A stretch of 64,000 nt of DNA from Candidatus Poribacteria bacterium (GTDB lineage: Bacteria; Poribacteria; WGA-4E; PCPOR2b). The position numbers and the translations under genes were made by a program. The notes under the pieces are model-generated. The model made no database searches. It worked only from the letters and a program-made list of their open reading frames with translations, and had not been told where the DNA came from. Of the stretch, positions 16,286-50,111 are shown one piece after another; position 1 is the first letter of the stretch; each line of letters starts with the position of its first letter. The DNA lies in assembly GCA_965208675.1 (NCBI GenBank), contig OZ242351.1:1024001-1088000 (forward strand), written 5' to 3'.

Positions 16286-16297
16286 CAGGAGAAACTG

Positions 16298-17433: not shown

Positions 17434-17463
17434 TTGACACTAGTGTAAATTGTATTGTATCAT
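17434..17463 (+). promoter_or_regulatory. sigma70-type promoter of terminase module 1
   Basis: TTGACA-18nt-TATCAT, 307 nt upstream of ATG 17770. Confidence 0.6.
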
Positions 17464-17610
17464 TTAACAGTAGTAAAACCATCATTACCAATAAGACGTA
17501 CTACATCATCTTCTAACCCCAATACACGACCTCACGGGTACGCTAGATGCCGCAGCGGGGATATTGTTTTCGCGCCGTATGCACCAAAAAATCGAGGCTT
17601 TGACCGGTAA

Positions 17611-17628
17611 AATTACACCCGTGTAATT
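17611..17628. promoter_or_regulatory. palindromic protein-binding site AATTACAC-CC-GTGTAATT
   Basis: Perfect 8-bp inverted repeat; extra half-site AATTACACCC at 17739; same motif upstream of module 2. Confidence 0.7.
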
Positions 17629-17769
17629 CGCAAATCGCACGGAGGCGCTCTAATACTAAATCCATTAAGATTTCTGATGTGTAAATGTAATGCCTATCTC
17701 CCTAAAACCGCACCAACACTAGCTTCCGGCGATTCCAAAATTACACCCGCCGGCACAGGAGGGCAATAA

Positions 17770-18354
17770 ATGAACGGCAATCCAACCTGGTTGGAAGCCC
17801 TGCAAGACGATGATGTTAGAAAACATATCGCATACCACATCACGCTGGTCGGCACCACCAAAGCGGTCAATGCAATCTATCATAATCCGGCTTTCGCAGG
17901 TTGCCGAACCGGTGACGCAAAGCAGGATCGTAACGCCATACGCTCCGCAATTCAGGTTTGCAATCCGAGAAATAGAGACCGCTTCAACAGCCAAAAATAC
18001 GGTGCCGCCGTCGCAGATGCGATGAGCCACCTTTTGGAGTATTTAGTCTCAAAATCCATCCCGAACCTTGAACAAACCCAGGAACGGTTGCAAAAAGTCG
18101 ACGACCAAGCCGCCAAAACGGAGGACATCGATGACCTTAAACAACTCCTACTGCAACAGCAAATTCACATTCGACATCAAGGAGCCCTATTATCCCAGAT
18201 GCAATGGGCTTTTCAGTTCCTGCAATGGCGCGCGCAACATGCCGGTCCCGGTGCAGCCCAACCCCGGCTTGATTCGGAAGATGCGCTCGGGGAACTCCCC
18301 GAACCTCCTGAGTCGCTACGAGGAAATTCGACGCCGGCGCAAAGTCCTGAATGA
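17770..18354 (+). CDS. putative terminase small subunit-like protein (module 1)
   Basis: AGGAGGG SD; helical 194 aa; overlaps the TerL gene; clear paralog of 49177..49725. The TerS role is inferred from position only. Confidence 0.6.
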   Translation: MNGNPTWLEALQDDDVRKHIAYHITLVGTTKAVNAIYHNPAFAGCRTGDAKQDRNAIRSAIQVCNPRNRDRFNSQKYGAAVADAMSHLLEYLVSKSIPNLEQTQERLQKVDDQAAKTEDIDDLKQLLLQQQIHIRHQGALLSQMQWAFQFLQWRAQHAGPGAAQPRLDSEDALGELPEPPESLRGNSTPAQSPE

Positions 18355-20059
18355 TGACGACCGGGCGCTAATCGTCCACATGGCTTATCTCGATCCGAGG
18401 TTCTTTGTCGAATACTACCTCCACGACCCGCAGTCCATGTCCCCCCTGCAGCCCCACCATGTCCGCCTGCTCAACCTCATCCCCTACGACAAAACCGGCG
18501 TCAAAGTCAACGTCCAAGCCCCGCGCGGCTCCGCCAAGACAACCTGCTGCGCCGTCTGGTACCCGCTCTGGAGAATCTGTTTCAAATCATTTCAACTCGC
18601 TGAAGGCGTCCCGGAAGAAAAATTCATCCTCATCATCAGCCGCAATCAAACCATGGCAAAGGGCATTCTCGAAAACCTCAAACGTCTAACCGAAAATGAG
18701 AATATTGTCCGGGACTTTGGTAACCTATCTGGTCGTGTATGGAAAAAAGATGAATGCGAGACCGCTAACGGCGTCGCTGTCCGAGTGCTCGGACGAAAGC
18801 AGTCCCCGCGCGGCGCTCTCGTCGCCGGTAAACGCCCCTCGCTCGTCGTCGTCGACGACCTCGAAGACCCGAAACGCTGCTTAAACCCCGATCTGCGTGA
18901 GGAAGATGCGGACTGGTTCTTTTCGGACATCATGTTCGCCTCCGACATCGGCGGAAACCTTAACGTCATCTACGCCGACACCGTCAAGCATCCGGACAGC
19001 CTGTCCATGCGTCTAACACAAACCCCCGGCTGGAACAAAGTCCACTTCAAAGCAATCCTCGACCCCGAAGACCTCTACCACCCCACCCACGAACATCTCT
19101 GGAAAGGTTGGGACGCAATTTATAGTGACTTGTCGTTAGACGACGCAGAACGAGAAGCCAAAGCCGACGAATTCTACAACGCGCATGAGGAGCAGTTGAA
19201 CGCCGGCGTCACCGCTCTTTGGCCCGAAGAGCTGTCCTACCTGAAAGTCCGCAAGATGATCGCAGAGCGCGGATACCACTACACCCTGCGCGAACTGCAA
19301 AACATCGCTCGCGACCCAAGCATGTCATTGTTCGACATTGAGAACGCCATGACGTTTGAGGTCGTTGACGCAGGCTTAAAACGAGGCGACGGTCGCATCG
19401 TCGAATGGCATCAGATCGGCGGCTTCACCACCTACATCGACACCATGGGCGGCCGCGACGCGCAGCAGAATTCCTACGCCTGCGCTGTCGTCGTCGTATG
19501 GGAGCCGCTGCCCGGCGGACGCAAATCCCACCCCGATTCGTTAGCCGGTGTCAACGCTTACGTGCTGGACTGCTGGATGGGCAAAGCTGGACGCGCCGAA
19601 CAGTTCGAGAACGGCATTCTTAAACACCAGCGTTCGGACGCCGTGCTGTACAGAGCCGTACCAAAATCGTATTTTGTGGCTGAGGAGCGTCCGGACCCGG
19701 ACCGCTCCATCCGAACGTCTTACGATAATGTATTCAACGCGCTAAAAGAAGAACTCAAATTTGAAAAGCCGCTGGTCTATCACCCGCAGACACAAAATAA
19801 AGAAGAACGCATTGCAAACTTGGAGCCGCCCATCAAGAACGGTTGGCTCGCATTCAATAAGGTAGGTTTGCCGAGTGAGTTCTGGAAGCAGATGCGCGAA
19901 TTCCCGACTTCCGAGCACAACGACGCCCCCGACGCTGTTCAGGGCGCGCTTCGCCACAGAATCACCACCACCCCCAAGCAGCGCGAACACGACGAACGGC
20001 GTCAACGCGCACGCGACGAGTGGTATGGCGAATACGGACGTCCAACCGTCCATCTATAA
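18239..20059 (+). CDS. phage terminase large subunit-like protein (module 1)
   Basis: Walker A APRGSAKTT, Walker B LVVVDDLED, nuclease-domain motifs YIDTMGG, NKEERIANLEPPIKNG, FPTSEHNDAPDA; start uncertain (frame open from 18068). Confidence 0.88.
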   Translation: MPVPVQPNPGLIRKMRSGNSPNLLSRYEEIRRRRKVLNDDDRALIVHMAYLDPRFFVEYYLHDPQSMSPLQPHHVRLLNLIPYDKTGVKVNVQAPRGSAKTTCCAVWYPLWRICFKSFQLAEGVPEEKFILIISRNQTMAKGILENLKRLTENENIVRDFGNLSGRVWKKDECETANGVAVRVLGRKQSPRGALVAGKRPSLVVVDDLEDPKRCLNPDLREEDADWFFSDIMFASDIGGNLNVIYADTVKHPDSLSMRLTQTPGWNKVHFKAILDPEDLYHPTHEHLWKGWDAIYSDLSLDDAEREAKADEFYNAHEEQLNAGVTALWPEELSYLKVRKMIAERGYHYTLRELQNIARDPSMSLFDIENAMTFEVVDAGLKRGDGRIVEWHQIGGFTTYIDTMGGRDAQQNSYACAVVVVWEPLPGGRKSHPDSLAGVNAYVLDCWMGKAGRAEQFENGILKHQRSDAVLYRAVPKSYFVAEERPDPDRSIRTSYDNVFNALKEELKFEKPLVYHPQTQNKEERIANLEPPIKNGWLAFNKVGLPSEFWKQMREFPTSEHNDAPDAVQGALRHRITTTPKQREHDERRQRARDEWYGEYGRPTVHL

Positions 20060-20198
20060 CGCCGCGAAAACCGCACTGTTAGCAGGCATTCAGGATTGAC
20101 CGTCCAGGTTTAAATTTGATATACTATTCCTGACGGCGGCTAATGACACGCTGCGCCTGAACATTACGGCTTAGGAGAAGCGGTTACCGAATTTTAAT

Positions 20199-20228
20199 TT
20201 GATTTTTGTCGCGAGAGTTTAGTATAAT
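20199..20228 (+). promoter_or_regulatory. sigma70 promoter upstream of the structured RNA candidate
   Basis: TTGATT-18nt-TATAAT; a second promoter TTGACC-18-TATACT with extended TG lies at 20096-20125. Confidence 0.6.
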
Positions 20229-20234
20229 TAATAC

Positions 20235-20578
20235 TAGTTCTGGTCAGATTAAAAATCTCATTTCGAGCTTACAAGGAACCCGGACGATGGCGATTTGTGA
20301 ATGCTAAAAAACTAGGTTGTTCTGGATATCAATACTCGCACAAGGTAAGCACGCGCATTCGGCAATAAGCTGCCCTCTGATATGACGTGGAAACACGCCT
20401 ACGCGCAAATGTTGAGTTCGCCAGGACATCCCAGTTGCATAATCGAGTCCCCTTTTCGTGGCCGGAGAAAGGAAAGCATATCCGACAGCAATAATTTGAA
20501 GTAAGCTCAATCCATGACCAGATGGTTTTCTTACATCGGAAACGGACCACGATTCAAAAAGGGATCGTGGTTTTTTTG
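20235..20578 (+). ncRNA. putative structured ncRNA or cis-regulatory leader (family not recognised)
   Basis: Nested long-range pairings TCTGGTCA/TGACCAGA, GAGCTTAC/GTAAGCTC, GGTTGTTCTGG/CCAGGACATCC; GAAA-tetraloop hairpin; bounded by a promoter and a terminator. Confidence 0.6.
20546..20577 (+). terminator. intrinsic terminator
   Basis: ACCACGATTC-AAAAAG-GGATCGTGGT hairpin followed by a T7 run. Confidence 0.8.
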
Positions 20579-20692
20579 TTGCCATTTATTGAAATCCGCA
20601 CTCTAAAAATGGACCTCTCGCAGCCAAAAATTGATTTTTAAATTCAATTCTTACGAAAGCCATACACCTCCTGAAAAACGGGGGAGTTTATC

Positions 20693-22924
20693 ATGAAACT
20701 GATCGAACCAATGCCAAATCCAGTCAGACAAAAGATACAAGGGTTACTTGCGCCCGGCGAAGATGAGCTAATCTGCGTATCTGCTGACATGAACCGCGAT
20801 GGCCGTTACGGCACACGCTGGATTGTGGTCACAAACAAGCGCATCGTAATAATTTCGGAAGATGCCGTCGATGATGTTGTACAGATACTCATTGAAGATG
20901 TCGTATCCGTACGGACCGAACCCCTAGTGGGCGGAGGACGTTTGGAGATAGAGCGGAAGGCAAGCCCAACCGCCATTGTCCGGTACTCCAACTCTATGGC
21001 GGTGAAGTTCTCCGAAGTCGCGCGGGGCATTGAACAGCTCCGCAAGCAGGAACCGTTCCAAATTGATAGCCAACTTGAACGCACACGATGTGAAAAATGC
21101 GGCAGACTGTTGCCTGAAAAGGACGGCATCTGCCCGGCTTGTATTCAGCGGTTAGCGACGCTGCGGCGAATCGGAAGCTACCTAATGCCCTACAAATGGC
21201 GTGCTGCACTTCTCGCAATGGCGTCTCTCATTGGAACGCTGACAGAGATTTTACCGCCGCTGATTACCCGGCACATCGTGGACGATGCGTTGGTACCCGC
21301 GAAAGAATCAGCCATCGGCATGGAGGAACGGTTAACGCTGCTCGGTTGGTTTGTGCTGGGCTTAGTCGGTGTGCGGGTGTTGGGTTGGGGCGCGGAATGG
21401 GTACACGGCTGGACGGTGACCTGGTTGGGCGCCCGCGTCACAGCCGATATCCGAAGCCGGTTATACCGCCAACTCGAGCTGCTTTCACTGCAGTTTTATG
21501 ACAAGCGGCAGGTCGGCGCGGTGATGTCACGCGTGACAAGAGACGCCGGCAGGTTACAGGACTTCCTCGTGGATGGCATGCCCTATCTGATCATTAATGG
21601 ATTGATGATTGTTGGCATACTGGTATTCCTGTTTCTGATGAGTTGGCGGTTGACACTATACATTTTATTGCCGATCCCGATTCTGCTAGCGTGGGGAGTC
21701 CTCTTCTGGCGGCGGATGCGCCGGTACTTCCATAAGTGGGATCAGAGATGGTCAGATCTCATGTCTACGGTGAACGAAACGTTGTCTGGAATTCGCGTGG
21801 TAAAGGCATTCGCACAGGAGATGCGCGAGGTTGCCTCGTTTAATAGACGAAATAAGGTGCTGCGGCGGATAGCTGTAAGGACGGAAATCAACTGGGAAAT
21901 CTTTTTCGCCACATCGAGTCTTGTGACTAGCTTGGGGGTACTGATAATTTGGCTTTTCGGAGGGATAGAGATGTTCAAGGGCGAGTTTTCTATCGGTAAG
22001 CTATTGGCATTCTACGGCTTCATGTGGCTCGTCTACGGTCCCATCCAATGGTTCGGGCAGGTCAACAATTGGATGACACGTGCGTTCGCGGGAGCCGAGC
22101 GAATCTTCGAGGTCATCGACACGCCGCCTGAAGCTTACGACGATGCAGACGCCGTACCCATGCCTAACATTGAGGGCAGGATCGATTTTCAGAAAGTCAC
22201 GTTTGGTTACGATAAGAGCAAGCCGGTGCTGCATGAAATTAACCTCGAAGTCACACCGGGGGAGATGGTAGGACTTGTCGGCAAGTCAGGTGTGGGTAAG
22301 ACGACCACCGTGAACCTAATCTCCCGGTTTTACGACGTAGATCACGGCGCAATTGAGATTGACGGCGTGGATAACCGAACAATCCGGTTGGAAGATCTGC
22401 GCAGCCAGATTGGCATCGTCGCCCAAGAACCTTTTTTGTTCAGCGGTACAATTTCTGAGAACATCGGCTACGGCAAACCCGGCGCAGGCTTTGAAGAACT
22501 CATGGACGCCGCACAAGCCGCCAACGCTCACAATTTTATCGTCGCCAAGCCAGACGGCTATGATACCCAGGTGGGAGAACGGGGAAACAACCTGTCAGGC
22601 GGTGAAAAGCAGCGAATCGCTATTGCCCGGGCAATCCTCCACAATCCGAGGATTTTAATTTTGGATGAAGCGACTTCGTCGGTGGACGTGGAGACGGAAA
22701 AGCAGATTCAGGAAGCCGTTTCCCGGCTAACCAAGGGCCGCACCACCATCGCAATTGCCCACCGGTTGTCAACGCTGCGGAACGCGAACCGGTTAGTCGT
22801 GCTTGAGGAGGGGCGTATCGTGGAGGTTGGGACACATAGCGAATTGATGGAAAAACGAGGGATTTTCTACGACCTTGTTCAATTACAGCGGCAGACATCA
22901 GAAATTATCGCAGTTAAAGCGTAG
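20693..22924 (+). CDS. ABC exporter (TMD+NBD) with N-terminal extra domain and CxxC-CxxC zinc ribbon
   Basis: GKSGVGKT, LSGGEKQR, ILDEATS; CEKCG...CPAC before the TMD; GGGGAG SD. Confidence 0.93.
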   Translation: MKLIEPMPNPVRQKIQGLLAPGEDELICVSADMNRDGRYGTRWIVVTNKRIVIISEDAVDDVVQILIEDVVSVRTEPLVGGGRLEIERKASPTAIVRYSNSMAVKFSEVARGIEQLRKQEPFQIDSQLERTRCEKCGRLLPEKDGICPACIQRLATLRRIGSYLMPYKWRAALLAMASLIGTLTEILPPLITRHIVDDALVPAKESAIGMEERLTLLGWFVLGLVGVRVLGWGAEWVHGWTVTWLGARVTADIRSRLYRQLELLSLQFYDKRQVGAVMSRVTRDAGRLQDFLVDGMPYLIINGLMIVGILVFLFLMSWRLTLYILLPIPILLAWGVLFWRRMRRYFHKWDQRWSDLMSTVNETLSGIRVVKAFAQEMREVASFNRRNKVLRRIAVRTEINWEIFFATSSLVTSLGVLIIWLFGGIEMFKGEFSIGKLLAFYGFMWLVYGPIQWFGQVNNWMTRAFAGAERIFEVIDTPPEAYDDADAVPMPNIEGRIDFQKVTFGYDKSKPVLHEINLEVTPGEMVGLVGKSGVGKTTTVNLISRFYDVDHGAIEIDGVDNRTIRLEDLRSQIGIVAQEPFLFSGTISENIGYGKPGAGFEELMDAAQAANAHNFIVAKPDGYDTQVGERGNNLSGGEKQRIAIARAILHNPRILILDEATSSVDVETEKQIQEAVSRLTKGRTTIAIAHRLSTLRNANRLVVLEEGRIVEVGTHSELMEKRGIFYDLVQLQRQTSEIIAVKA

Positions 22925-23090
22925 CGTCCGCATATCTCCTCATGTACACCTTGACAATATTACCGCGAATTTTGGATTATGGCATATTCAAGCTTAAGGT
23001 CAGTAATTCTATCGCACTCCACGAAAATGCCGCGCATCGACGTGGCATTCAATCGTGCCAGCGCAAACTCGGACAAATGGAACACCAATA

Positions 23091-25973: not shown

Positions 25974-26366
25974 ATGAATATAAACTCGAATTACAGGTTC
26001 ATAGAAAATGCTGCTGCAACCCACCGATTCCGCAATTTATCTGGGCTACTAACGTGGAGTTACCAAAGGCCATTTTCACCGATACCGAGTTATAGTAATT
26101 CTCAAATTGAATTGCATAGAAACGTTCTGAATTTATTGCAATAAACGTCCAGATGTGATAGAATATCTATTTAATATTTTCTGGCGCCGATGTCATTTAT
26201 AATCCCGTAAATTGGCGTAAGCAACTGCGCTATCCGTAATGAGGTTCGATTGGCAAAGCGTCATGCACTCGTTTCCGTTTGTGTATTTCGGGCGTAGCGG
26301 CGATTGACTAAACCAGTCTTCGGACCGCTTAGCCCTGCCCACCTAGGTACAAAGGAGGCGATTTCA

Positions 26367-27860
26367 GTGGATATGAAATTTTCGGAGTCGGTGTCTCCAA
26401 AATTTTCCAAAATGGGATTGACGTTTGACGATGTTTCATTAATTCCCGGCGAATCAAACGTACTTCCCAATGAAATTGACACATGCACACGATTGACCCG
26501 CCATATAGGCCTTAACATCCCTATCTGCAGCGCCGCAATGGACACCGTGACGGAAGCGGAACTTGCGATCGCTCTTGCGCGCGAGGGCGGCATTGGGATG
26601 ATCCACTTTAACTGCTCCATTGATGAGCAGGTCAAAGAAGTGGACAAAGTCAAACGCTCGGAAAGCGGCATGATTGACGATCCTATCACGTTAACCCCTG
26701 ACAAAACGGTGCGCGACGCCTTGGCAGTAGCCGCCCGCTACCGGATTGGCGGTGTTCCGATTGTGACGAATGAAGGATTCCTCCTTGGCTTAATCACGAA
26801 CAGAGATTTGAAATACGAAACCGATTTAGATTTACCGGTGACAGCCTTGATGACGTCAAGCGACCAGCTCACCACAGCTTCACAGGGGGTTACGCTCGAA
26901 AAGGCGAAGCAAATCTTGCATCAAATTCGCAAGGAAAAATTACCAATTGTGGATGAGAATTTTCGTCTCTGCGGGTTAATTACAATTAAAGATATTGACA
27001 AAGTCCAGAAATATCCCGCAGCTTGTAAAGATGAATCGGGGAAATTGAGAGTTGGGGCAGCCATCAGTCCGCATTGGGGATTAGATAAAGTCGGAATGCT
27101 GGTTGACGCGGGCGCGGATGTATTAGATATCGACACAGCGCACGGTCATCATCAGAATGTGATTCGTTCGACGCGTAGGATTAAGACGGAATTTCCGGGC
27201 GTAGAGTTGATTGCCGGCAATGTAGTGACTGCCGACGCGACCAACCAACTGATTGATGCTGGCGCCGACGCGGTAAAAGTTGGCATGGGACCAGGTTCGA
27301 TTTGTACAACTCGCGTAGTCTCCGGAATCGGCGTACCGCAGATAACGGCGGTTTACGACTGCGCACGAGAGGCTGACAAAAACGGTATACCGGTAATCGC
27401 AGACGGCGGCATCCGATATTCAGGCGATGTTGCGAAGGCAATCGGCGCAGGCGCAAGTTCGGTCATGATAGGCAGCCTTCTCGCCGGAACGGAGGAGAGC
27501 CCCGGAGAAACAGTTATCTATCAAGGACGGACGTATAAAATCCACAGAGGTATGGGGTCGCTGTCTGCCATGAAAGAACGCGGCGGCAGTGAGCGATACG
27601 GTCAGAAGAACCTCAGTCTATCGAACCTCATACCAGAAGGAATCGAAGGACGAGTTCCTTACAAGGGCAAGCTAGATGACTTTGTCTATCAATTGGTCGG
27701 CGGACTCCGTCTAGCAATGGGATATTGCGGTATACCTGACATCGAATCGCTTCGCGAGGAAAGCAAATTCATTCGAGTGACGGGTAGCGGCTACCGTGAA
27801 AGTCATCCGCATGACATCGCCATTACGGAAGAAGCGCCCAATTATAGCGTGATGCCCTAA
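26367..27860 (+). CDS. guaB: IMP dehydrogenase
   Basis: [18 protein letters not shown] pair, [13 protein letters not shown] active-site loop, ESHPHD; AAGGAGG SD before GTG 26367. Confidence 0.97.
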
Positions 27861-28428: not shown

Positions 28429-31308
28429 GTGGGGGACAAATTCCAACAAGCGGAACAAACTCAGGGAATTTCGTTAAATTTTAATTCGGATTCCCTTCTT
28501 AATTTAACCGACAAAATTAAATCCAGCATTGAAGGACGCATGGATTGGGGAGATACTTTTGGTGTAGGGCTTAGCACCAAAAACAGCAAATACTTGCTGG
28601 TCTGGACCCCGAAAAAATCTTCAGAAGGGAAAATTCTGCCGGGATTTGATTCAGAAGACGGCAAACTTACACTTAAAATGAAGCCTCGGCCGGGAGCGTG
28701 GGTTTCCTGGATTGATGAAGCAAAAGTAGCCGAGGAAGCGGTCGATGACTACGACCGTGTTCGAAAGAGTGTGCAGGAACTTGAGCGGAATACAAGGCAG
28801 ATGATTGATTTCGCGGATGGTGTTCTCAAAGACATTACTGTCTTGCATCTCGGTAAACCGCTCACGTTATCTGAACTCGCGCTTGAGATTTTGGACGTCG
28901 AATTGACAATACCGACGACCATAAAAATTGGAGGGTATGTCTTATCGCAATCTCAGTCGCCAGACGCCGCTGCAGCCAATGTGATTATTCCTGAGCAAAC
29001 GAACATCCATCGGATTCATTTGAATGAGGATGCATTGTTCGAGGCGATTGGAACGGATGGATATGACCAAGTTTTTGTGGTTTACCGCACACATATCAAG
29101 CGTTACCCAGACCTTCTTGACATTAATTACTGTTTAGCGCTTAATGAATATTTTGATGGTGGATCGCCGCCGGAAGATATTGTATCAAATGTTGATCGTT
29201 CCAACTTGACGCAAAGTGCAAAGGAAATAGAGACTTTTCCTACGGCTGCCATCTACGATCCTTTGCAGCCTGATTCAGTTCTATTTGTTGCGATGACATT
29301 CAATGCTTCTTCCGAACAGCTTCGCGAAACGATTTCACAATGTTCGACAGAGATTGACAGTTATGTGTCGAAAGCCAATCAGCGGGCTTCCGAAGTCATG
29401 GCGAATTTTCAAGGGCGAATTGATAGCCGCATTCAAGCCCTTAGCCTTCGATCGAATCAGCGGGTCCACGAAAAAATATGGGATGAAATTGCCAACCACG
29501 AATTGCAGAATCGTATGGTTGAGTTGATAGATTTTTTCGGTGAATACTTTGGCGAAAAATTTGAACCGGATTTAGCTGCTGCCAAAAAAGATCAACTCAA
29601 AACGAGCATTGATTCCATGGTTCAGGATTGGCAACTTCAGGATTTGCGGCAAACTACGCTCAAGCAACTCATACTTACGAGTTACAAATTGGCAAATCAG
29701 GTACTTGACCGCGCTACCGCAATGTTCTACGATCTGGCATTCGAAAAACACTTCATCCAAACGGGACAGATTAAGCCCGTTAATTTACAGGTGCTAGAGG
29801 AAGGCAAAGCTCTAAACCAAGTACACCTGCCTGAGTGGACAAAAAAAACAGTGCGAGACCGACTGCATCTGTTTGCCCTGAAACCGTCCGTCCACCCGAA
29901 CCAGATTGAGAGACTCCGAGGGTTATGGTTGGAATTTCTGGAGATTGCCAACTTTGCCAGCCGAAACAACCAGCAGTTTGATATCATCATGGAACCATTG
30001 GTCGATATCCTGCTCTCTCCTAAACCCTCTCGCAAGACTTCGGCAGATCGGCGCAGGTCGAGGGCGGTTCCTGCCCGGAGGAAACCGGGATTCGACGGAT
30101 TTGAGATTTCTGACGAGGAACTTTCGCGCGTACTTAGCCGAGTCAGAAGTCACTCACACTTAATTGAACGCTGGATTTTGAGTCTGCCCGAACCGAATTA
30201 CAAAAATCAACAGCACCATGCAACGTTGTGGATGATTTTGACTGACGGTATTGTTCGAGAACGGCTTTACAGGAATTTTCAACCGACCTGTGATATCAAT
30301 TTAAGCCTTCCGATAGCGACAAAAAGATTGGTCGATATTGTATTTGGCGGACAGGTTGTCGTATGTGATGAAAAAGATTTGAAACCGCTAAAACGCAATT
30401 TAGACCGCGCACTATCCGAAAGAACGGGGCACGGACTACCAGAAATATCAACGCCTTCCACACTTAAAATACATAGTGACACATTGCTCTGCTTGCTGTA
30501 CGAAAAACTCGCAGCGTACCGGGGGCAATTGGAAAAACGGTTAGCTCAAATTACAAACGCAAAACCTCAGAGCAAAACGGCTAAGTCGAAAAAGGGGCGA
30601 AAGAAGCAGCAATCTAAAACCGATACAGACACAGTTAATACCATCGAATCGGAAATGTCTAATACTGCCGAAATCATAACATTTCTGACTCCATACACCG
30701 AGGCGGCGGAATCGTTGCTTCAAAATGCTATCAACCCCAAGTCAAGGCAACTGAATCAGATTCGTCAGCATCAAGTGTTGAATTTCGATTTGCAAGCGTT
30801 GCCCCCGATCTCGGAATCTTGGTTGGAAGACTTAAAGTCACTTGAGGATTATACAAACCTGCGCGCATTTCTGCTCGAAAACCAACTTCCCATCTCGACA
30901 ACCGGGCGGCTGTTGATGAATTACAGGAGGAGTTTTGAAAACGCCTCGCCTGTCGGGGCGGATGCTGCGGATGACTTTGATGTCGCATTAAATCTCATCC
31001 AAGAACTGAAATCGCTACAAGAAGCAGGATACGCCGGTGAAACGCTCAAGCGATTCAAAAATTACATCGCCGAGAAGTTATGGAGATGGGAATTGACTCA
31101 AATTACAGAAGCAAAATTGGCGGCGTTAATCAAGGAGAAAGTATTGGTGTCAGTTATCTGTTACGAGAAAGACGTTGAAGCTCTACTAGAATTTGCTGAG
31201 CGCTACGAACAACTAATTGAGGCAAAGTTTAACGACAATTTCAAGATGAACGAACAAGCGAAAATGCTAGAAGAAAAATTCAGCGCGCTCGCAAAATCGA
31301 TTTTGTGA
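28429..31308 (+). CDS. large hypothetical protein (959 aa, largely helical)
   Basis: Long uninterrupted ORF with no recognisable catalytic motif; 13 nt before the next gene. Confidence 0.8.
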   Translation: MGDKFQQAEQTQGISLNFNSDSLLNLTDKIKSSIEGRMDWGDTFGVGLSTKNSKYLLVWTPKKSSEGKILPGFDSEDGKLTLKMKPRPGAWVSWIDEAKVAEEAVDDYDRVRKSVQELERNTRQMIDFADGVLKDITVLHLGKPLTLSELALEILDVELTIPTTIKIGGYVLSQSQSPDAAAANVIIPEQTNIHRIHLNEDALFEAIGTDGYDQVFVVYRTHIKRYPDLLDINYCLALNEYFDGGSPPEDIVSNVDRSNLTQSAKEIETFPTAAIYDPLQPDSVLFVAMTFNASSEQLRETISQCSTEIDSYVSKANQRASEVMANFQGRIDSRIQALSLRSNQRVHEKIWDEIANHELQNRMVELIDFFGEYFGEKFEPDLAAAKKDQLKTSIDSMVQDWQLQDLRQTTLKQLILTSYKLANQVLDRATAMFYDLAFEKHFIQTGQIKPVNLQVLEEGKALNQVHLPEWTKKTVRDRLHLFALKPSVHPNQIERLRGLWLEFLEIANFASRNNQQFDIIMEPLVDILLSPKPSRKTSADRRRSRAVPARRKPGFDGFEISDEELSRVLSRVRSHSHLIERWILSLPEPNYKNQQHHATLWMILTDGIVRERLYRNFQPTCDINLSLPIATKRLVDIVFGGQVVVCDEKDLKPLKRNLDRALSERTGHGLPEISTPSTLKIHSDTLLCLLYEKLAAYRGQLEKRLAQITNAKPQSKTAKSKKGRKKQQSKTDTDTVNTIESEMSNTAEIITFLTPYTEAAESLLQNAINPKSRQLNQIRQHQVLNFDLQALPPISESWLEDLKSLEDYTNLRAFLLENQLPISTTGRLLMNYRRSFENASPVGADAADDFDVALNLIQELKSLQEAGYAGETLKRFKNYIAEKLWRWELTQITEAKLAALIKEKVLVSVICYEKDVEALLEFAERYEQLIEAKFNDNFKMNEQAKMLEEKFSALAKSIL

Positions 31309-31321
31309 ATCAATCATTTAG

Positions 31322-38547: not shown

Positions 38548-40116
38548 CTAATGCCGAAAATGCCGCACGCCTGTGAAAACCATTGCCATACCGTAGCGAT
38601 CTGCCGCCTCAATGACCGATGCATCTCCAGCAGAACCGCCGGGTTGAATAATCCCGCATACACCCGCCGCGCCCGCTACTTCAATATTGTCCGGAAATGG
38701 GATATAGGCATCTGATGCAAGCAGTGCCGCTTTCGCCCTTTCTTCGCCGGCTTTCCTGACAGCGGTAATGCTTGCATCAACCCGGCTCATTTGGCCCGCA
38801 CCGATGCCGACGGTCTTGGTTCCACGAGCAAGCACGATACTATTTGATTTGACGTGCTTACACGCCTTCCAGGCAAACAGTAAGGATTCAATCTCCGCTT
38901 CGGTCGGTTGGCGCTTGGTAACAACCTGTAAGGTGTTAGGCGTAGTCTCGTGCATATCCCGACTCTGGAGTAGCACGCCTCCGACGACGTTTCGAATCTG
39001 CTTAACCGCCGGATTATGAGATAATTCGTTCGTTTCCAAGATTCGGCGGTGTTTCACGCGAGAAAGCGTTTTCAACGCTCTGTCCGTGTAGCACGGTGCG
39101 ATGATTGCCTCCACTTTAATCCCGGCTCTTGCCGCTTCGCGAATCGCGTTTGCGGCTTCTAAATCAACTTCACGGTTAAGACCGATGACACATCCAAAGG
39201 CGGAGAGGCGATCGCAATCGAGGGCATCACTGAACGCGCCCGCCAAATTTGAGGCAGCCGCCAACCCGCACGGGTTGTTGTGCTTGATTATGGCGCAGGC
39301 AGGTTCGGTGAAATCCTTTACTATCTCAATTGCCGCTTCTAGATCGAGGATATTGTTGTATGAAAGTTCTTGGCCGCTAAGTTGATTCGCCCATGCCGCG
39401 CAGGGCTCGGGCGAGGAATGCGCGCGATAGAAAGCCGCCGCTTGGTGGGGATTCTCGCCGTACCGGAGCGACTGGGCTTTTTCATAGCGAACGTCAAGAA
39501 TCTCGGGAAATTCTCCGTGCGATGACTCCAGGTTAGCCAAGTAACGCGATATAACTGCATCGTAATGAGCGGTATGGGCAAATGCAGCTTTTGCCAATCT
39601 AAACCGGGTTTCGTGCGATAGGCAACCATCGTTCGCCTCCAACTCAGCAACGGTGTCAGGATACTGGCTTGGATTGCTGAGCACAGCGACATCGCGGTAA
39701 TTCTTGGCTGCGGATCGGATCATTGCGGGACCGCCGATGTCGATGTTTTCAATCACTTCAGTAAGATCGATGCCTTTCTTCGCAATCGTCGCCTCAAACG
39801 GATATAGATTGCACACGACGAGATCAATCATCCCGATGCCGTTTTCCGAAGCCTGCGCAATGTGCTCAGGATTATCTCGAACAGCGAGCAACCCCGCATG
39901 TATCCTCGGATGGAGCGTTTTCACACGCCCGTCAAGCATTTCCGGAAAACCGGTGTGGTCGGAAACCTCGCGGATTCCAATTCCCAACTCCTGAAGGTGT
40001 TTGGCGGTGCCGCCCGTCGAAAGGATTTCCACACCTCTATGGACTAGGGACTTTGCGAGATTACCCAAGTCCGTCTTGTCGTAAACACTCACTAATGCAC
40101 GTCGGATATTTTTCAT
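38548..40116 (-). CDS. purH: bifunctional AICAR transformylase/IMP cyclohydrolase
   Basis: RALVSVYDKT, GRVKTLHP, IDIGGP, LRYGENPHQ, KHNNPCG, IIQPGGS, RHFRH; real start ATG 40116. Confidence 0.97.
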   Translation of the reverse strand: MKNIRRALVSVYDKTDLGNLAKSLVHRGVEILSTGGTAKHLQELGIGIREVSDHTGFPEMLDGRVKTLHPRIHAGLLAVRDNPEHIAQASENGIGMIDLVVCNLYPFEATIAKKGIDLTEVIENIDIGGPAMIRSAAKNYRDVAVLSNPSQYPDTVAELEANDGCLSHETRFRLAKAAFAHTAHYDAVISRYLANLESSHGEFPEILDVRYEKAQSLRYGENPHQAAAFYRAHSSPEPCAAWANQLSGQELSYNNILDLEAAIEIVKDFTEPACAIIKHNNPCGLAAASNLAGAFSDALDCDRLSAFGCVIGLNREVDLEAANAIREAARAGIKVEAIIAPCYTDRALKTLSRVKHRRILETNELSHNPAVKQIRNVVGGVLLQSRDMHETTPNTLQVVTKRQPTEAEIESLLFAWKACKHVKSNSIVLARGTKTVGIGAGQMSRVDASITAVRKAGEERAKAALLASDAYIPFPDNIEVAGAAGVCGIIQPGGSAGDASVIEAADRYGMAMVFTGVRHFRH

Positions 40117-40202
40117 AATATTTATTGCCTTATTTACGCAACAAGAGAAACCGGCACGAAAATCAGCTATTTCACGCACACTTCTCTTCAGGATTTTTCG
40201 TT

Positions 40203-40970
40203 TCAGCGCTGAAGTGCGCGTACATGCTGCTGGACGGATTTCAACAAAAAAGTCTCCGCGTTGCCGCAGCTTAACACGCGAAAGCCCCGTTCCATGGCTT
40301 GAAGCGCATCCTCGACGGTGCCCGCCGGACATCCTACAGCGATATTTTTCGGCGCCGCGGCAGCCAGCACCCTCTCGGCTGCTTCAATAACTTTAGGGTG
40401 TGATGTCTGCCCCGTCACTCCCAAGGAAGCAGCGAGATCGCTCTTTCCTATGCTCAGCACATCAATTCCTTCGACTTCTACAATTTCATCAATGTTTTCG
40501 ACGGCTTCGGCGTCCTCAATCATAGCGGCGACAACGACTTCATCGTTGATGCCCGAATAATAATCCTCGGTCGATACCGCCCCGAACTTGATACTTCTGC
40601 CCGGACCAACACCGCGCTTCCCCTGCGGCGGGTAGAGCGCGCCATCGACAATCTGTTGCGCATCTTCTGCGTTACGGCAGTGCGGGACAAGAATACCCAT
40701 CGCCCCGAGGTCTAGCGCACGCATAATCATCGCCGTGTTAATTTCGTGAATACGTACGATTGGCGTAATACCGACCGCATAGGCAGCCAAAATCATCCGC
40801 TCCATCTCCGTCCAACCGATGGAACCGTGTTCGCCATCAATTCGGACATAATCTAAGCCGGCGTAACCGAGAATTTCCACGATTCCCGGTTCAGGCAGCC
40901 GAGCCCCAACGCCGAAGACAGTTGCGCCGCCTTTGAGTTTCCGTTTCATTGAATTCGTTCTGATGTGCAT
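40203..40970 (-). CDS. HpcH/HpaI aldolase/citrate lyase family protein
   Basis: DGEHG, ALDLGAMGILVPH, YPPQGKRG, MIED.EAVENIDEI, IG.SDL motifs. Confidence 0.92.
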   Translation of the reverse strand: MHIRTNSMKRKLKGGATVFGVGARLPEPGIVEILGYAGLDYVRIDGEHGSIGWTEMERMILAAYAVGITPIVRIHEINTAMIMRALDLGAMGILVPHCRNAEDAQQIVDGALYPPQGKRGVGPGRSIKFGAVSTEDYYSGINDEVVVAAMIEDAEAVENIDEIVEVEGIDVLSIGKSDLAASLGVTGQTSHPKVIEAAERVLAAAAPKNIAVGCPAGTVEDALQAMERGFRVLSCGNAETFLLKSVQQHVRALQR

Positions 40971-45042: not shown

Positions 45043-45076
45043 ATGTGTTATTCTCTGAGAGGTCACACAGTGTCTA

Positions 45077-45461: not shown

Positions 45462-45559
45462 TAAGGCAATCGGCAAGTGAAACCAAACCTCAATTAGATG
45501 TGTCGATGCAAGGTAATTAGGTTCAAAAACAAAGCGAAAGATTTAAGACTAGCTACCGC

Positions 45560-46279
45560 CTAGTAAAGATAGTTTTCAGGCTGATAGCCGGATGGCTCGA
45601 GCACCACAATGACTGGCCGGTCGTCCGCAGATTTAGGAATCGGAAACGTTACTGTGTGATGCCGGACATAAAATATCGGGCTGCGTTGATGGCGCCTAAT
45701 GAATTCGCTCGCCGATACCATTTTGCCTTTGACCGGCGGCAGGTAGTAGTGCATGGGGAAAATCCACTTCGGTTCCAGAATATCAAGCATCGGCTCAAGT
45801 TCGTGCAATTTAAGCGTGAGCCGTTCGCCTACAATGGCAAGCAGTACATCACACCGGCCGATGAAGGGGGCAAGCTGATCCGCATCCAGCTCGTAACCGA
45901 GGTCGCCCATATGCAAGAACCAAAGGCCGCCGGCTTTGAAAGCGTACAGGGCATTATCGTCTGCGCCCTCCGGATGATCCTCCGCTTCGGCTGCTTTAAC
46001 CGTGATTAGCGGTTCGCCGTTGATTACGGCGTTGTCTCGGCCTTCGGCTACAGCCAGCGCATCAATTACGCGCGGGTTTCCCTCAACGAGTTCAACGTAG
46101 GAGTGCCCTCTATCCGTGAGCGAACTCGCGATCACTGTGCCCGCCTTTAGCCGGAAATCGTCATCGCCGGGCAGTCCGAGCGCGGAGGGCGTGTACGGAT
46201 CCATAGCGATAGTCGGTTTTCCGTTCTCCCAAAGCCGAAAGCAGGCAAGCCCTACCCATTCAAGCGAAACGGACATCAT
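45560..46279 (-). CDS. metallo-beta-lactamase-fold hydrolase
   Basis: W.G.ACF, MDPY, HMGDLG and PMHY motifs; AAGGAG SD. Confidence 0.8.
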   Translation of the reverse strand: MMSVSLEWVGLACFRLWENGKPTIAMDPYTPSALGLPGDDDFRLKAGTVIASSLTDRGHSYVELVEGNPRVIDALAVAEGRDNAVINGEPLITVKAAEAEDHPEGADDNALYAFKAGGLWFLHMGDLGYELDADQLAPFIGRCDVLLAIVGERLTLKLHELEPMLDILEPKWIFPMHYYLPPVKGKMVSASEFIRRHQRSPIFYVRHHTVTFPIPKSADDRPVIVVLEPSGYQPENYLY

Positions 46280-46290
46280 CCACGCTCCTT

Positions 46291-47292
46291 TTATTCCTCT
46301 CCGAGACCGCCCGCGCGTTCCATGCCCGCAATCTCCCACCACTTTGCGCCGGGCGACTTCTCGAGTACGATTGGCTTGAGAAAATCTACCGATTTCCGCA
46401 ACCCTTCATCAAGGTCGAAATATTCCGACTCCATTTCGACCGAAAGCACATGGTCATAACCGATGAAGCGGAGTGTTGTGGCAAACTCGCGCCATTCTAG
46501 TTCGGAGTGCCCCCATCCAACCAGAGTGTATGTCCAGGAACGATCCGCGGGTTGTTCAGGCGTGCTAGAGTCAGTGTTTCCCCGCAACCGCGCATTGTGG
46601 GGGTGGAAGGTTACGTCTTTTACGTGGACGTGCTGAACGAGCGGGCCGAGAAAGCGCGCGGCTTCGATAGGGTCAATGCCCTGATACCACAAATGCGAAA
46701 TATCGAAGTTGCAAGCAACAACATCACCAATTTCATCGTGCAACCGCTTCACGGCGACAGGGTTGTGAATCATATCGCCGCCATGCATCTCGAAACACAG
46801 CGTGACGCCGTGATCGGCGGCAATCTTCCCGTGTTCACGCCAGTAGGGGAGCAGCCGCTTCTCCCACTGCCATTCGAGGGTGTCGCGCAGGAAGGGCCAT
46901 TCGGCGAAAGTCACCCAATTTGGAGCTGTGTCGCCTTCGGCGCCTTCAGGCAACCCGGCAAGCAGCGTCATCCGCCGAATACCGGCTGCTTCCATAAACT
47001 TCCACGCCTCGCGAAGTTCCTGCGAATACTTATCGGCGACCGCCTTATTCGGCATGAGCGGCGCACCGTGCGCACCCATGGCGCTGATTTCGAGTCCATA
47101 CCGAGCATAGGTGTCATGCCAGCGGTCAATTTCACCTTTGTCTGCGAGGAGCTTCTGCGGATCACAGTATTTTCTCGCCCAAAGCCCCGCGATTCCAACC
47201 TCGATCGCCTGAAACCCCAGCTCTTGCGCATACCGCAGTCCATCCTCAAAATCTAAATGCATCAAGTTCTGTGAAATCACTCCGAGTTTCAT
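46291..47292 (-). CDS. sugar phosphate isomerase/epimerase (IolE/IolI-like TIM barrel)
   Basis: FEMHG, NFDISHL, HVHVKD and LSVEME motifs; AGGAG SD. Confidence 0.9.
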   Translation of the reverse strand: MKLGVISQNLMHLDFEDGLRYAQELGFQAIEVGIAGLWARKYCDPQKLLADKGEIDRWHDTYARYGLEISAMGAHGAPLMPNKAVADKYSQELREAWKFMEAAGIRRMTLLAGLPEGAEGDTAPNWVTFAEWPFLRDTLEWQWEKRLLPYWREHGKIAADHGVTLCFEMHGGDMIHNPVAVKRLHDEIGDVVACNFDISHLWYQGIDPIEAARFLGPLVQHVHVKDVTFHPHNARLRGNTDSSTPEQPADRSWTYTLVGWGHSELEWREFATTLRFIGYDHVLSVEMESEYFDLDEGLRKSVDFLKPIVLEKSPGAKWWEIAGMERAGGLGEE

Positions 47293-47462
47293 GAAAAACT
47301 CCTTTTTCTCCTAAACCTACCTGTACGTTAATACTCACTTGATATTTGCCCAAATAGATAATGCAGTTGCAAATTCTTAATTAGATTATTTCAGTCACCT
47401 TGCGATTTTAGTATATCACGGTATATGATTTTTTTTCAATACATTTGCGAGTCAATATTGGG

Positions 47463-49328
47463 TTATATGTGAACGATGTTTCTTCTTCGTTCTCGGCGGC
47501 GTTCGTCAAGTTCGCGTTGATTTGCGGTTGTCGTGACTCTGGCGCGGAGTGCACCTTGAACGGCATCGGGCGCGTCGTTGTGCTCCGAGGTCGGGAATTG
47601 TCGAAACTGTGTCCAGAACTCCGCGGGCAAACCTTGTTCATTGAACGCGAGCCACCCGTTTTTGATCGCGGGTTCAAGGGTTGCGATTCGTTCCTCTTTG
47701 TTTTGGTTTTGGCGGTGGTAATAGATGTTCTTGTCGAAGTTTAGCTTACTTTTCATGGCGTTGAACGCTGAAGTATTCGCTTGTTGGATAGTGTAGTCCG
47801 GGTCGGGTCGCTGTTCGCAAACGAATTTAGATTCAGGATTTGTGTGTCCAAGCATTGCATCCGCACGTTGGTGGAGCAGGATGGCATTCTCCATCTGTTC
47901 TGTGAGCGGAACGCGACCCATCCAGCAGAGCAGGATGTATGCGTTGACTCCAGCAAGGGAGTCCACATTGTATTCGCGACCACCGGGGAGGGGTTCCCAA
48001 GCGACGACGACGGCGCAGGCGAAAGCGTTTTCGCGAGTATCTTTCCCACCCATGGAGTCGAGATAGGTGGTAAAGCCCCCGACGTTATTCCAAAAGACGA
48101 GCCGCCCGTCCGAACGCCGGAGTCCGTTGCCTTCAACCCGGAATGTGACGGCGTTGTCCATATCGAAGAGCGACATGCTGGGGTCGCGGGCAATGTTCTG
48201 GAGTTCGCGCAAACAGAAGTGGTATCCTCGCTCAACAATCATCTTCCGGACTTTGAGATAGGATAGCTTCTCGGACCAGAGCGCAGTGACGCCAAGGTTC
48301 ATATCCTCCGCGTTGGCATTATAGAATTTGTCCGCCTTTGCTTCGCGTTCAGCATCATCTAATGTCAAGTCGCGATAAATGGCTTCCCATTCTTTCCATA
48401 GGTATTCGTGGGTCGGGTGGTACAGGTCTTTGGGGGAACGGATAGCTTTGTAGTGTACGTTTTTCCAGCCGGCTGTCTTCGTTAGCCGCATGGAGATGCT
48501 ATCCGGGTGTTTTACGGTATCGGCGAAGATAAGGTTGATGTTCCCTCCGATGTCGGAAGTGAACATGACGTCCGTAAAGAACCAATCCCAATCTTCTTCA
48601 CGCAGATCGGGGTTTACGCAGCGTTTCGGGTCTTCGAGGTCGTCGACGATGACGAGCGACGGTCGTTTGTCCTCGACGAGTGCACCGCGCGGGGATTGGT
48701 TGCGTCCGAGGGGCAAGAGGGTGACGCCGTTGGCAGTCTCGCATTCGTTCGCTTTCCAGAAGGGACCGCGGAGGACTCCGAAGTCCTCGGCAATTTTAGG
48801 CTTTTCCATCAGTCCTTTGATATTGCGCAGATTTCTTTTTGCCATGAATTCGTTGCGGCTGATGATTAGGATAAATTTCTCGTCCGGGACGCCTTCAGCG
48901 AGTTGGAAGGCTTTGAAACAGATTCTCCACAGCGGATACCAGATAGCGCAGCAGGTTGTCTTTGCGGAACCGCGCGGGGCTTGGACGTTGACTTTGGCGT
49001 CGGTTTTGTCATACGGGATGGGATTGAGCAGCCGCACATGATGGGGCTGAAGCGACGACATTGTGTTCGGGTTGTGGAGGTAGTATTCCACAAAGAATTC
49101 GGGAAAGATATAAGCCATGTGCACCAATAGCGCCCGGTCGTCATCATTCCGGATTACTTCTTGCCGTCGGATTTTCTCATAATGACTTCGGAGTTTCCGG
49201 CAGTTTCCGTCCCGTATCTCGCGGATTAGATTGGGATTGGGTTGAATCGGCGCCCGTTTCGTCGGCAGGGCGCCGGTTGAATTGAACAGACCCCGCGAGC
49301 GACGATAAGGCTGATCTATGCTTATCAT
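47463..49328 (-). CDS. phage terminase large subunit-like protein (module 2)
   Basis: APRGSAKTT, LVIVDDLED, YLDSMGG, NKEERIATLEPAIKNG, FPTSEHNDAPDA; colinear paralog of 18239..20059. Confidence 0.88.
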   Translation of the reverse strand: MISIDQPYRRSRGLFNSTGALPTKRAPIQPNPNLIREIRDGNCRKLRSHYEKIRRQEVIRNDDDRALLVHMAYIFPEFFVEYYLHNPNTMSSLQPHHVRLLNPIPYDKTDAKVNVQAPRGSAKTTCCAIWYPLWRICFKAFQLAEGVPDEKFILIISRNEFMAKRNLRNIKGLMEKPKIAEDFGVLRGPFWKANECETANGVTLLPLGRNQSPRGALVEDKRPSLVIVDDLEDPKRCVNPDLREEDWDWFFTDVMFTSDIGGNINLIFADTVKHPDSISMRLTKTAGWKNVHYKAIRSPKDLYHPTHEYLWKEWEAIYRDLTLDDAEREAKADKFYNANAEDMNLGVTALWSEKLSYLKVRKMIVERGYHFCLRELQNIARDPSMSLFDMDNAVTFRVEGNGLRRSDGRLVFWNNVGGFTTYLDSMGGKDTRENAFACAVVVAWEPLPGGREYNVDSLAGVNAYILLCWMGRVPLTEQMENAILLHQRADAMLGHTNPESKFVCEQRPDPDYTIQQANTSAFNAMKSKLNFDKNIYYHRQNQNKEERIATLEPAIKNGWLAFNEQGLPAEFWTQFRQFPTSEHNDAPDAVQGALRARVTTTANQRELDERRRERRRNIVHI

Positions 49329-49725
49329 GAATTTGCTGCCTCAATTTGAGCCGTTTAAGGTCATCAATATTTTCGGTTTCCGCCGCCAAGTCATCAACTT
49401 GTTGCATCCGTTTGAGGGATTGATCGAGGTTTGGCAGGTGTTCCGCAACCAAAAACTCGTATTGGTCTCTCAAGGCGTCTACGAGGGCATCGCCATATTT
49501 TTGGGTGTTGAAGCGATCTTTAATTTTTGGATTGCAGGTCTGAATGGCGGAACGTATAGTTTTTCGATCCTGCACCGCGTTGTCGGTTCTGCATTCTGCG
49601 TAGTTAGGGCTTTGGAAAATGGCATCAACGGTCTTCGTGGTACCGAATCGCGCGATGCTGTAGGCGATACTTTTTCGGATGTCTTCGTCTTTCAAGGCTT
49701 CCAACCAAGTGGTTTTATCTAGCAT
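49177..49725 (-). CDS. putative terminase small subunit-like protein (module 2)
   Basis: TWLEAL.D.D.RK.IAY.I...GTTK, IRSAIQ.CNP...DRFN.QKYG shared with 17770..18354; AGAGG SD. Confidence 0.6.
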   Translation of the reverse strand: MLDKTTWLEALKDEDIRKSIAYSIARFGTTKTVDAIFQSPNYAECRTDNAVQDRKTIRSAIQTCNPKIKDRFNTQKYGDALVDALRDQYEFLVAEHLPNLDQSLKRMQQVDDLAAETENIDDLKRLKLRQQIHDKHRSALSSLAGSVQFNRRPADETGADSTQSQSNPRDTGRKLPETPKSL

Positions 49726-49760
49726 TTTATTATCCTCTGGGTATTTTTTTGAATTATTCG

Positions 49761-49853
49761 GTTACACCGGGTTACACTGAAATTACGCCGGTGTAATTCT
49801 CGGATTGCTGGGATTTAATCCCGGAGCGGATTTGGGGATTTATGAATTACACC
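49761..49853. promoter_or_regulatory. array of TTACAC sites including palindrome AATTACGC-CG-GTGTAATT
   Basis: GTTACAC at 49761 and 49771, palindrome at 49781-49798, AATTACACC at 49845. Confidence 0.7.
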
Positions 49854-49918
49854 GTTTTGTTTTTTTTTGCACATCGCGCCGATTGGTTAGTGAATTGTAC
49901 TACAGGCGTTAGCGGGGC

Positions 49919-49977
49919 AAAAAAAAACCCAAAAGCGACAGTTCTTAGTTTCAAGACCGTCCACTTTTGGGTTTGCC
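49919..49977 (-). terminator. intrinsic terminator/attenuator in the leader of terminase module 2
   Basis: Minus strand AAACCCAAAAG...CTTTTGGGTTT stem followed by a long T run. Confidence 0.6.
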
Positions 49978-50081
49978 TTGTCCGCTTGCGCGGTGGTTAT
50001 TTAGTTATAGCGGTTATTGTGCAGCGCACTTCTTTGAGTTTGCTGAAAAGCCGAAAATTAGCGTAAAATGTTAATGCTGTT

Positions 50082-50111
50082 ATTATACGGCAAAGCATTA
50101 TTGGTTGTCAA
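50082..50111 (-). promoter_or_regulatory. consensus sigma70 promoter of terminase module 2
   Basis: TTGACA-18nt-TATAAT on the minus strand, 357 nt upstream of ATG 49725. Confidence 0.75.

Follow-up and report, generated by a model that had tools for sequence, protein, structure and literature searches.

What task does a DNA-packaging motor perform in a cell that builds no capsid? This question was raised by a 64,000-nt stretch of the chromosome of a sponge-associated Candidatus Poribacteria bacterium (4.89 Mb in a single contig), hereafter called the window; positions refer to the window unless they are marked as genome coordinates. Two modules occur in this stretch, each consisting of a small open reading frame (ORF) that overlaps a gene for a protein resembling the large terminase subunit (TerL) of tailed phages. 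According to our analysis, the modules very probably represent a Poribacteria-specific orphan terminase cassette, which came from a tailed phage with a terminase nearest to those of Mu-like phages, was kept without virion genes, and exists in at least three subtypes (A/B/C, D/E, and F). It is well supported that the cassette is domesticated and maintained and is not prophage debris, and the motor seems to be kept for a purpose of the cell's own. Terminases are regarded as viral hallmark genes and are used for prophage calling and phage phylogenies. The long maintenance of a terminase pair as a multi-copy cellular family without a virion calls for caution in this use. No description of such cassettes was found in the full-text literature, supplementary files being outside the scope of the search.

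Terminase-like gene pairs in the window and in the genome

The original prediction had claimed two modules, at 17770-20059 on the plus strand and at 47463-49725 on the minus strand, and ORFs were found at those places. In module A, the small ORF (17770-18354, +) encodes 194 aa with a predicted helical N-domain, a long helix, and a disordered tail, and by position it resembles a small terminase subunit (TerS). The TerL-like ATPase-nuclease gene of this module overlaps the small ORF, and its longest open frame (18068-20059, +) gives 663 aa from a TTG codon; a likelier start is the ATG at 18131, which is preceded by GGAGG at a distance of 6 nt. In the case of module B, the TerL-like ATPase-nuclease gene (47463-49328, -) encodes 621 aa with GAGG preceding its ATG, and the final 152 nt of the small ORF (49177-49725, -; 182 aa) overlap it. 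TerL-A and TerL-B are 69% identical over 602 aa, and the two small ORFs are 51% identical. A fusion of small ORF and TerL by frameshifting was also considered; it was set aside because TerL-A (18131) and TerL-B (49328) have their own start codons with Shine-Dalgarno sequences.

Both modules are real, but two is not the total: a genome-wide search with tblastn and the PHROG 38 profile yielded six TerL-like genes (A to F). The frames are open in all six, and each is accompanied by an overlapping small ORF upstream. Copies A, B, and C are mutually 62-69% identical. D shares 82% identity with E, and both share 36-41% with A/B; F is 37% identical to A/B. Stops flagged in copy E by the profile search lie upstream of its ORF. 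As a separate observation, a short ORF just after TerL-D and TerL-E (genome 3835382-3835630 and 1770471-1770776) belongs to a dispersed repeat with 9-11 copies and probably represents a repeat element and not a gene.

Judged from its sequence, the large protein is a TerL-type ATPase-nuclease, an identity that rests on PHROG 38 ('terminase large subunit'). This profile matches all six copies, with E values of 2.6e-58 for A, 3.5e-53 for B, 2.2e-53 for D, and 6.1e-41 for F, and the matches of A and B span only the last two thirds of the profile. Pfam gave no match for either TerL or either small ORF of the window modules. Among the six copies, no Pfam terminase model rose above threshold, the best being Terminase_6N with copy D (E 0.0078), and a PDB sequence search with a 39-member TerL profile gave zero matches. 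Intact Walker A, Walker B, and nuclease motifs had been predicted for both window proteins, and the conservation of the catalytic residues across a 39-sequence alignment agrees with this. In the numbering of TerL-B, R119, G120, and K123 of Walker A and D229 and D230 of Walker B are invariant, and T125 and E232, respectively, are conserved in at least 90% of the sequences. In the nuclease part, D424, D430, E505, D509, D585, and D588 are all invariant. The confident AlphaFold2 model of TerL-B (pLDDT 84, pTM 0.81) consists of an alpha/beta N-half and a beta-rich C-half with beta-alpha-beta order. A complex prediction for residues 1-340 of TerL-B with the small ORF scored 0.05, which is below the mark and carries no weight either way on binding.

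For the smaller partner, gene order was compared over 21 Poribacteria loci, namely, the six of this genome and 15 from other Poribacteria. A small gene stands directly upstream of TerL and in the same orientation in 21/21 loci, with an overlap of ~20-220 nt. The three small-ORF types are homologous (hhalign probability 91%, E 9e-7 over 77 columns) and share an invariant 'NP' motif. AlphaFold2 predicted helices at residues 7-60 (pLDDT >94), one helix at 74-144, and a disordered tail at 146-182. Small terminase subunits typically have a DNA-binding helical N-domain, an oligomerization helix or barrel, and a flexible C-tail, and the predicted secondary structure, with a helical N-domain, a helix of ~70 residues, and a disordered tail, would fit this layout. 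The earlier assignment of the small ORF as TerS has its basis in position, overlap, and predicted architecture, with no homology to any TerS family. With hhalign, the probability was <1% both against the TerS of phage FP_Mushu and against the Mannheimia DNA-binding protein. In a search of 1.84 billion proteins, remote relatives of the small ORF were represented by 71 clusters. None of the 10 representatives scanned matched PHROG, and the 10 that were looked up, 7 of them shared with the scanned set, are all unnamed or 'hypothetical'. The idea that the F-type small ORF resembles DUF2280 was not supported, as Pfam gave no match at E up to 1.

Pieces resembling the F-type small ORF were also detected by tblastn (35-53% identity over 51-118 aa) at genome positions 1655937-1656176, 2206950-2207282, 411880-412230, 4053835-4054059, 1338767-1338991, and 1657944-1658096. 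They are located in stretches lacking an ORF of at least 90 aa, with no adjoining TerL, and they may be relics of lost cassettes.

Absence of virion genes and the probable phage ancestry of the cassette

The absence of portal and capsid genes from the 64 kb, as originally described, holds and was extended to the whole genome by six profiles and tblastn. The profiles Phage_portal, SPP1_portal, phrog_64, Phage_capsid, and Mu-like_gpT had no matches genome-wide. Portal_Mu had none either, although this zero is weak because the profile matched in no control genome. When 1240 viral ORFs, taken from the 80 viral contigs that carry the nearest TerLs, were compared with the genome by tblastn, only scattered generic domains were matched outside the six modules, with no cluster and no structural gene. 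Moreover, the portal, MuF, and G proteins of the Mushu and Mannheimia Mu-like phages had no tblastn match in the genome.

The same was observed in relatives, for which the original prediction had left open that orthologous loci might still carry such genes: neither a portal nor a capsid gene adjoins TerL at any of the 21 Poribacteria loci. When two Planctomycete loci (L024 and L025, left out of the Poribacteria counts) were added, the small ORF was the only recurrent neighbor across the 23 loci. In the phylum-wide survey of 151 Poribacteria genomes, the phrog_64 portal was found in four, none of which belongs to families f1-f3; these families hold all modules, and phrog_64 matched in 0 of their 135 genomes plus G000. 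At four loci of genus g7 (L011-L014), a very acidic protein of 526-555 aa (cluster c10) is encoded 1.8-2.7 kb downstream of the TerL start, with conserved small genes (clusters c13, c14, and c17) ahead of it. This protein had no PHROG match and is not a portal. The g7 cassette and its downstream genes may form a larger conserved unit in that genus.

To place the family, a maximum-likelihood tree of 48 sequences was used. All 21 Poribacteria TerLs form one clade (bootstrap/SH-aLRT 100/100) on a stem of 1.28. The sister of this clade is a viral clade whose loci have the order TerS (phrog_51), TerL, and portal (phrog_64), and the Planctomycete sequences nest among viral ones. One old capture followed by duplication would be the simplest reading of these sequences. 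As the tree is unrooted, we infer the phage-to-cell direction because the outgroup has virion context.

The nearest named phage TerLs are those of Mu-like phages (~26% identity), in which the order is TerS, TerL, portal, and MuF. Members of PHROG 38 from Faecalibacterium phage FP_Mushu and Mannheimia phage vB_MhM_3927AP2 are ~26-27% identical to the Poribacteria TerL over ~80% of its length, and both the ATPase-nuclease layout and the catalytic motifs are alike. As in the cassettes, the large gene is preceded and overlapped by a small one. However, portal, MuF, and protease genes follow TerL in these phages, and none of them was found in the Poribacteria genome. The Poribacteria TerL also differs in having no Pfam terminase match and a family-specific C-terminal tail, and in being multi-copy and chromosomal. 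The closest relatives outside Poribacteria, which form the sister clade in the tree, are on uncultivated viral contigs of IMG/VR (L038-L044; 27-30% identity, the best reaching 30%). The overlap of the small and large genes is shared with them, but they have a recognizable TerS (phrog_51) and a portal (phrog_64), whereas the Poribacteria small ORF matches neither family and the portal family is absent.

Two kinds of chromosomal packaging systems were also compared. Classical phage-inducible chromosomal islands (PICIs) carry terS only, along with integrase, replication, and regulatory modules and att sites, and capsid-forming PICIs carry capsid genes. Such satellites are chromosomal, hold packaging genes without a full virion set, and interfere with the packaging of their helper. 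In contrast, the cassettes have two genes only and no common flanks. Phage_integrase was found in only 2 of the 124 neighbors (at least 160 aa and within 5 kb) of the 21 loci, the ORFs of the window islands being scanned in part. Gene transfer agents (GTAs) likewise have phage-derived packaging genes that are inherited vertically and controlled by the host, but they keep a head-tail cluster with terL adjoining the portal gene, and no such cluster was found in the Poribacteria genome.

Retention, turnover, and the leader element

Selection on the cassettes was estimated as dN/dS by the NG86 method with our own script, small-ORF rows involving B_G005 being left out. The values were far below 1: TerL orthologues gave 0.16-0.27 (dS 0.12-0.79), TerLs compared across module types gave 0.18-0.26, and the small ORF gave 0.23-0.35. 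The dS between paralogues is ~1.0-1.3. Module A is at the orthologous place in two of three congeneric genomes (G038 and G005) with 79-80% nucleotide identity, and orthologues have diverged as their flanks have (78-82% versus 78-86%). Between copies, DNA similarity extends from the leader to the stop codon and no further, and terminal repeats and common flanks are lacking.

The family is carried by 31 of the 151 Poribacteria genomes with 1 to 8 matches per genome, and a few fragments exist besides. The carriers include all members of the window's genus (4/4 counting G000, 5-8 matches each) and of g7 (9/9), and some members of the sister genus g2 (6/20), g6 (8/38), and g8 (3/57). The 15 loci of other Poribacteria contain the same two genes, one TerL ORF being shortened to 507 aa.

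Each window module lies in a variable island. The island with module A (9229-19874) is replaced in the closest relative, G021, by ~1.2 kb of insertion sequence (IS) debris; fragments of an IS3-type element border this deletion, and only the last 190 nt of TerL-A are kept. The island with module B spans 47305-57346, and in G021 positions 47310-57346 are replaced by 2.9 kb. In a ~96%-identical strain (run X5), 47304 is joined to 52119 over 576 other bases, and a B-like piece is found elsewhere. Misassembly was considered as well. In one sample, short-read contigs bridged both sides of module B with zero differences and at flat depth. At 51818-52051, each of the four runs shows a ~tenfold rise in contig depth, and numerous loose ends fall at 51904-51960; this is a short repeat common to many places or organisms. 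The overall pattern is long-term retention together with local birth and death. The earlier view of a maintained multi-copy unit instead of decaying debris is thereby strengthened by six intact pairs, a single clade, synteny, and low dN/dS.

Upstream of the A/B/C-type modules, a promoter-like site is followed by a long leader with a heptamer-repeat element. Positions 17434 and 50111, which bounded the region in the original prediction, were found to be the ends of consensus-like sigma-70 promoters, the calls coming from a consensus scan only and giving no evidence of function. The site of module A (17434-17463, +; TTGACA-18-TATCAT, 11/12) is ~310 nt upstream of the small ORF, and that of module B (50082-50111, -; TTGACA-18-TATAAT, 12/12) is ~360 nt upstream. 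In the reading proposed here, every cassette would have such a site of its own. The leader element itself measures ~110 nt and is common to the A/B/C-type modules of four congeneric genomes. Its parts are a conserved core, a palindrome of the form AATTACA-N4-TGTAATT, and (N)TGTAAT heptamers, which number four or five and occur in either orientation. In leader A (17608-17760, +; nhmmer E 2.6e-15 at genome 1041660-1041747), the palindrome AATTACACCCGTGTAATT (17611-17628) is accompanied by the core CCGC..CTAGC..GGCGAT and a second AATTACACC copy. Leader B (49757-49869, -; nhmmer E 3.8e-24) contains GTGTAAT repeats, the core, and the palindrome AATTACACCGGCGTAATT. Within a locus, nearly all repeats have the same base ahead of TGTAA, and this base differs between paralogues, i.e., it varies in concert.

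Only four copies of the element are present in the genome: three precede modules A, B, and C, and the fourth lies in the spacer of nrdR and the class II ribonucleotide reductase gene nrdJ (genome 3112527-3112635; L125 828-936), the identities of the latter two genes being confirmed. The same element is upstream of nrdJ in G005 and G038, and the D/E/F modules are without it. From its sequence, the leader element is a candidate for an operator, a recognition site of the small protein, or both.

The canonical NrdR box is given as C4, A6, A8, T9, T11, and G13 (PMC13584703). Canonical boxes were found upstream of nrdR, and a perfect triple with 32 bp spacing at genome 1734720-1734800 presumably serves another nrd operon as its operator. 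The leader element was rejected as an NrdR operator, since no 6/6 box is present in the A, B, and C leaders. An RNA motif in the leader was likewise unsupported: Rfam gave no match at the gathering threshold in the window and only chance-level matches in the leaders, and the RNAalifold consensus was weak (-5.9 kcal/mol). The nrdR-nrdJ spacer additionally holds a dispersed repeat of ~130 nt (L125 637-768; genome ~3112336-3112467), which is present in dozens of copies with 75-97% identity in G019, G103, G038, and G021 and looks like a miniature mobile element.

Possible functions and genomic context

As a whole, the observations are best explained by a domesticated orphan cassette acting on phage packaging, an explanation that we consider plausible although somewhat short of probable. 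Our leading reading of the function, interference with or hijack of phage packaging, is a guess. Conflict with phages is favored because the motor is intact, the cell has no capsid of its own, the diverged paralogues have locus-specific arrays, and the modules lie in islands.

The working that we propose for it is possible but doubtful. The small protein would bind a DNA site, for which the best candidate is the locus-specific heptamer array in the leader of its own cassette, and it would recruit the TerL-like enzyme, which would cut and translocate DNA. With no capsid produced by the cell itself, the motor would come into play when a phage infects. In one option, host DNA would be loaded into the empty procapsids of the invader; in the other, the enzyme would intervene at the packaging step by competing for DNA and cleaving it. 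Phage packaging would be aborted in either case, and in the first the neighboring island would be transduced as well. Three elements of this scheme are inferred: that the small protein recognizes a DNA site, that phage infection is involved, and that foreign capsids are used. A more elaborate version, which we regard as rather unlikely, would describe the proteins as 'pirate terminases': each paralogue would recognize its own pac-like heptamer array and load host DNA, the adjacent defense island first, into phage procapsids, thereby aborting the phage and spreading the island. The cassettes would then be a system owned by the host that combines defense with gene transfer and needs no capsid genes, and the leader in common with nrdJ would place expression at times of nucleotide stress. 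The base before TGTAA, which co-varies by locus, would fit such paralogue-specific recognition.

Several observations weigh against a role in phage packaging. The small ORF matches nothing in Pfam, PHROG, or PDB and no known TerS family. In PADLOC, the small ORFs gave only a chance-level match for one of them (E 0.082), and neither window TerL matched any PADLOC 2.0 defense model. In phages, the C-terminal tail of TerL binds the portal. In the A/B/C and g7 clade this tail is conserved and unlike that of the viral sisters, and one conserved partner thus fits better than many phage portals. Since the leader is common to the host nrdJ, it points to host DNA metabolism as much as to defense. The association with defense islands was drawn from the 25 commonest neighbor families without a genome-wide control. 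The loss of module A in G021 had no obvious replacement, which fits an accessory role and does not tell what that role is. Furthermore, we know of no helper phage. The nrdJ-type leader and the conserved tail leave some probability to roles in host DNA metabolism and in a hidden particle.

The first of these, a part in replication, repair, or chromosome processing co-expressed with deoxynucleotide synthesis, appears unlikely. It would account for the A/B/C leader element being elsewhere only at nrdR-nrdJ, and again at nrdJ in G005 and G038, as well as for purifying selection and vertical retention within the genus. However, the distribution is patchy (31/151 genomes and 6/20 in the sister genus), and the number of matches ranges from 1 to 8 in a genome. 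G021 has lost module A by deletion, and neither G021 nor the related strain has module B at its site. The modules also lie in variable islands, D/E/F lack the element, and the element contains no canonical NrdR box.

A defense nuclease that needs no capsid is unlikely to the same degree. In such a system, the small protein would sense or target invading DNA and the TerL-like enzyme would degrade it. The intact nuclease and ATPase residues are consistent with this, as are the restriction and defense genes and transposases nearby and the birth-and-death turnover of diverged paralogues. On the other hand, there is no PADLOC match and no sign of discrimination between self and non-self, the conserved family-specific tail suggests a protein partner, and the repeat array in the cassette's own leader would be a self target.

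Less likely still, the pairs could be the packaging genes of a dispersed GTA-like or virus-like particle whose structural genes are too divergent for detection by sequence. Divergent HK97-fold and portal proteins can escape sequence methods, these TerLs themselves escape Pfam, and the conserved TerL tail would fit one conserved portal. But the six profiles had zero matches, the 1240 viral ORFs found no structural match, and only the small ORF recurs beside the cassettes. A single particle served by six diverged terminases would be without precedent among known GTAs.

The original prediction had also offered a minimal mobile element, which was not supported. A selfish mobile or homing element, spreading as the TerL nuclease cuts empty sites, is very unlikely, even though the family is multi-copy, patchy over the phylum, and found at indel edges and a synteny break, and although the RNase H-like superfamily includes both this nuclease type and transposases. 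The similarity of the copies ends at the leader and stop codon without terminal repeats or common flanks, the paralogues are old (dS ~1.0-1.3), and orthologues stay in place and have diverged like their flanks. In addition, the loss in G021 is an IS-associated deletion and not an excision. Neutral remnants of degraded Mu-like or related prophages, which the transposable nature of the nearest phages (they insert anywhere), gene fragments in some genomes, and IS nearby might suggest, are highly improbable and already contradicted by the same two genes standing alone and intact in six own loci and likewise in 15 others (one TerL of 507 aa), by dN/dS of 0.16-0.27, by the single Poribacteria clade with its long stem, and by the lack of any other phage gene in the genome in the searches made.

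Should the domesticated cassette act on capsids brought in by infecting phages, bacteria would have a new means of fighting phages and of moving defense islands; action on host DNA would instead mean that a viral motor had been exapted in a new way. The proteins are of a size suited to expression and assay, so the question is testable even though the organism is uncultivated.

Regarding the surroundings, the two modules are separated by housekeeping genes, and guaB (26304-27860) and purH (38548-40332), previously placed between them, were both confirmed. Among these genes, a 959-aa ORF (28429-31305, +) had no Pfam match at E 1e-5 and no NCBIfam match at E 1e-10. Restriction-modification genes had been described beside both modules. 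To the left of module A, a DNA methylase-Mrr fusion (N6_N4_Mtase and Mrr_cat; 13375-15207, +) bears this out, while near module B the description depends on an 857-aa methyltransferase-like protein (52748-55321, +) with NPPY and SAM-binding motifs recognized by eye and no Pfam match. Relatives of the latter protein are near modules in three other loci. Among the 25 commonest neighbor families, PADLOC identified MADS components (4, 4, and 3 members), type I, IIG, and IV restriction, and HEC-06, and Pfam identified three kinds of transposase (3 members each) and Phage_integrase (2 members). An IS3-type element (HTH_21 and rve) is located at 11098-13287 and also near module E, and it is multi-copy in the genome and in relatives.

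Finally, a membrane-anchored 'EHGG' repeat protein is encoded at 50859-51608 (-). Its family, which has an N-terminal membrane anchor and the motif 'SPVTAQRDKFGEIEC..L.VVD', matched neither Pfam nor PHROG and occupies 24 loci genome-wide. Seven of these 24 lie within 3.1 kb of a terminase module, and four of the six modules are reached in this way; random placement of the loci reached four modules in 0 of 20000 trials.

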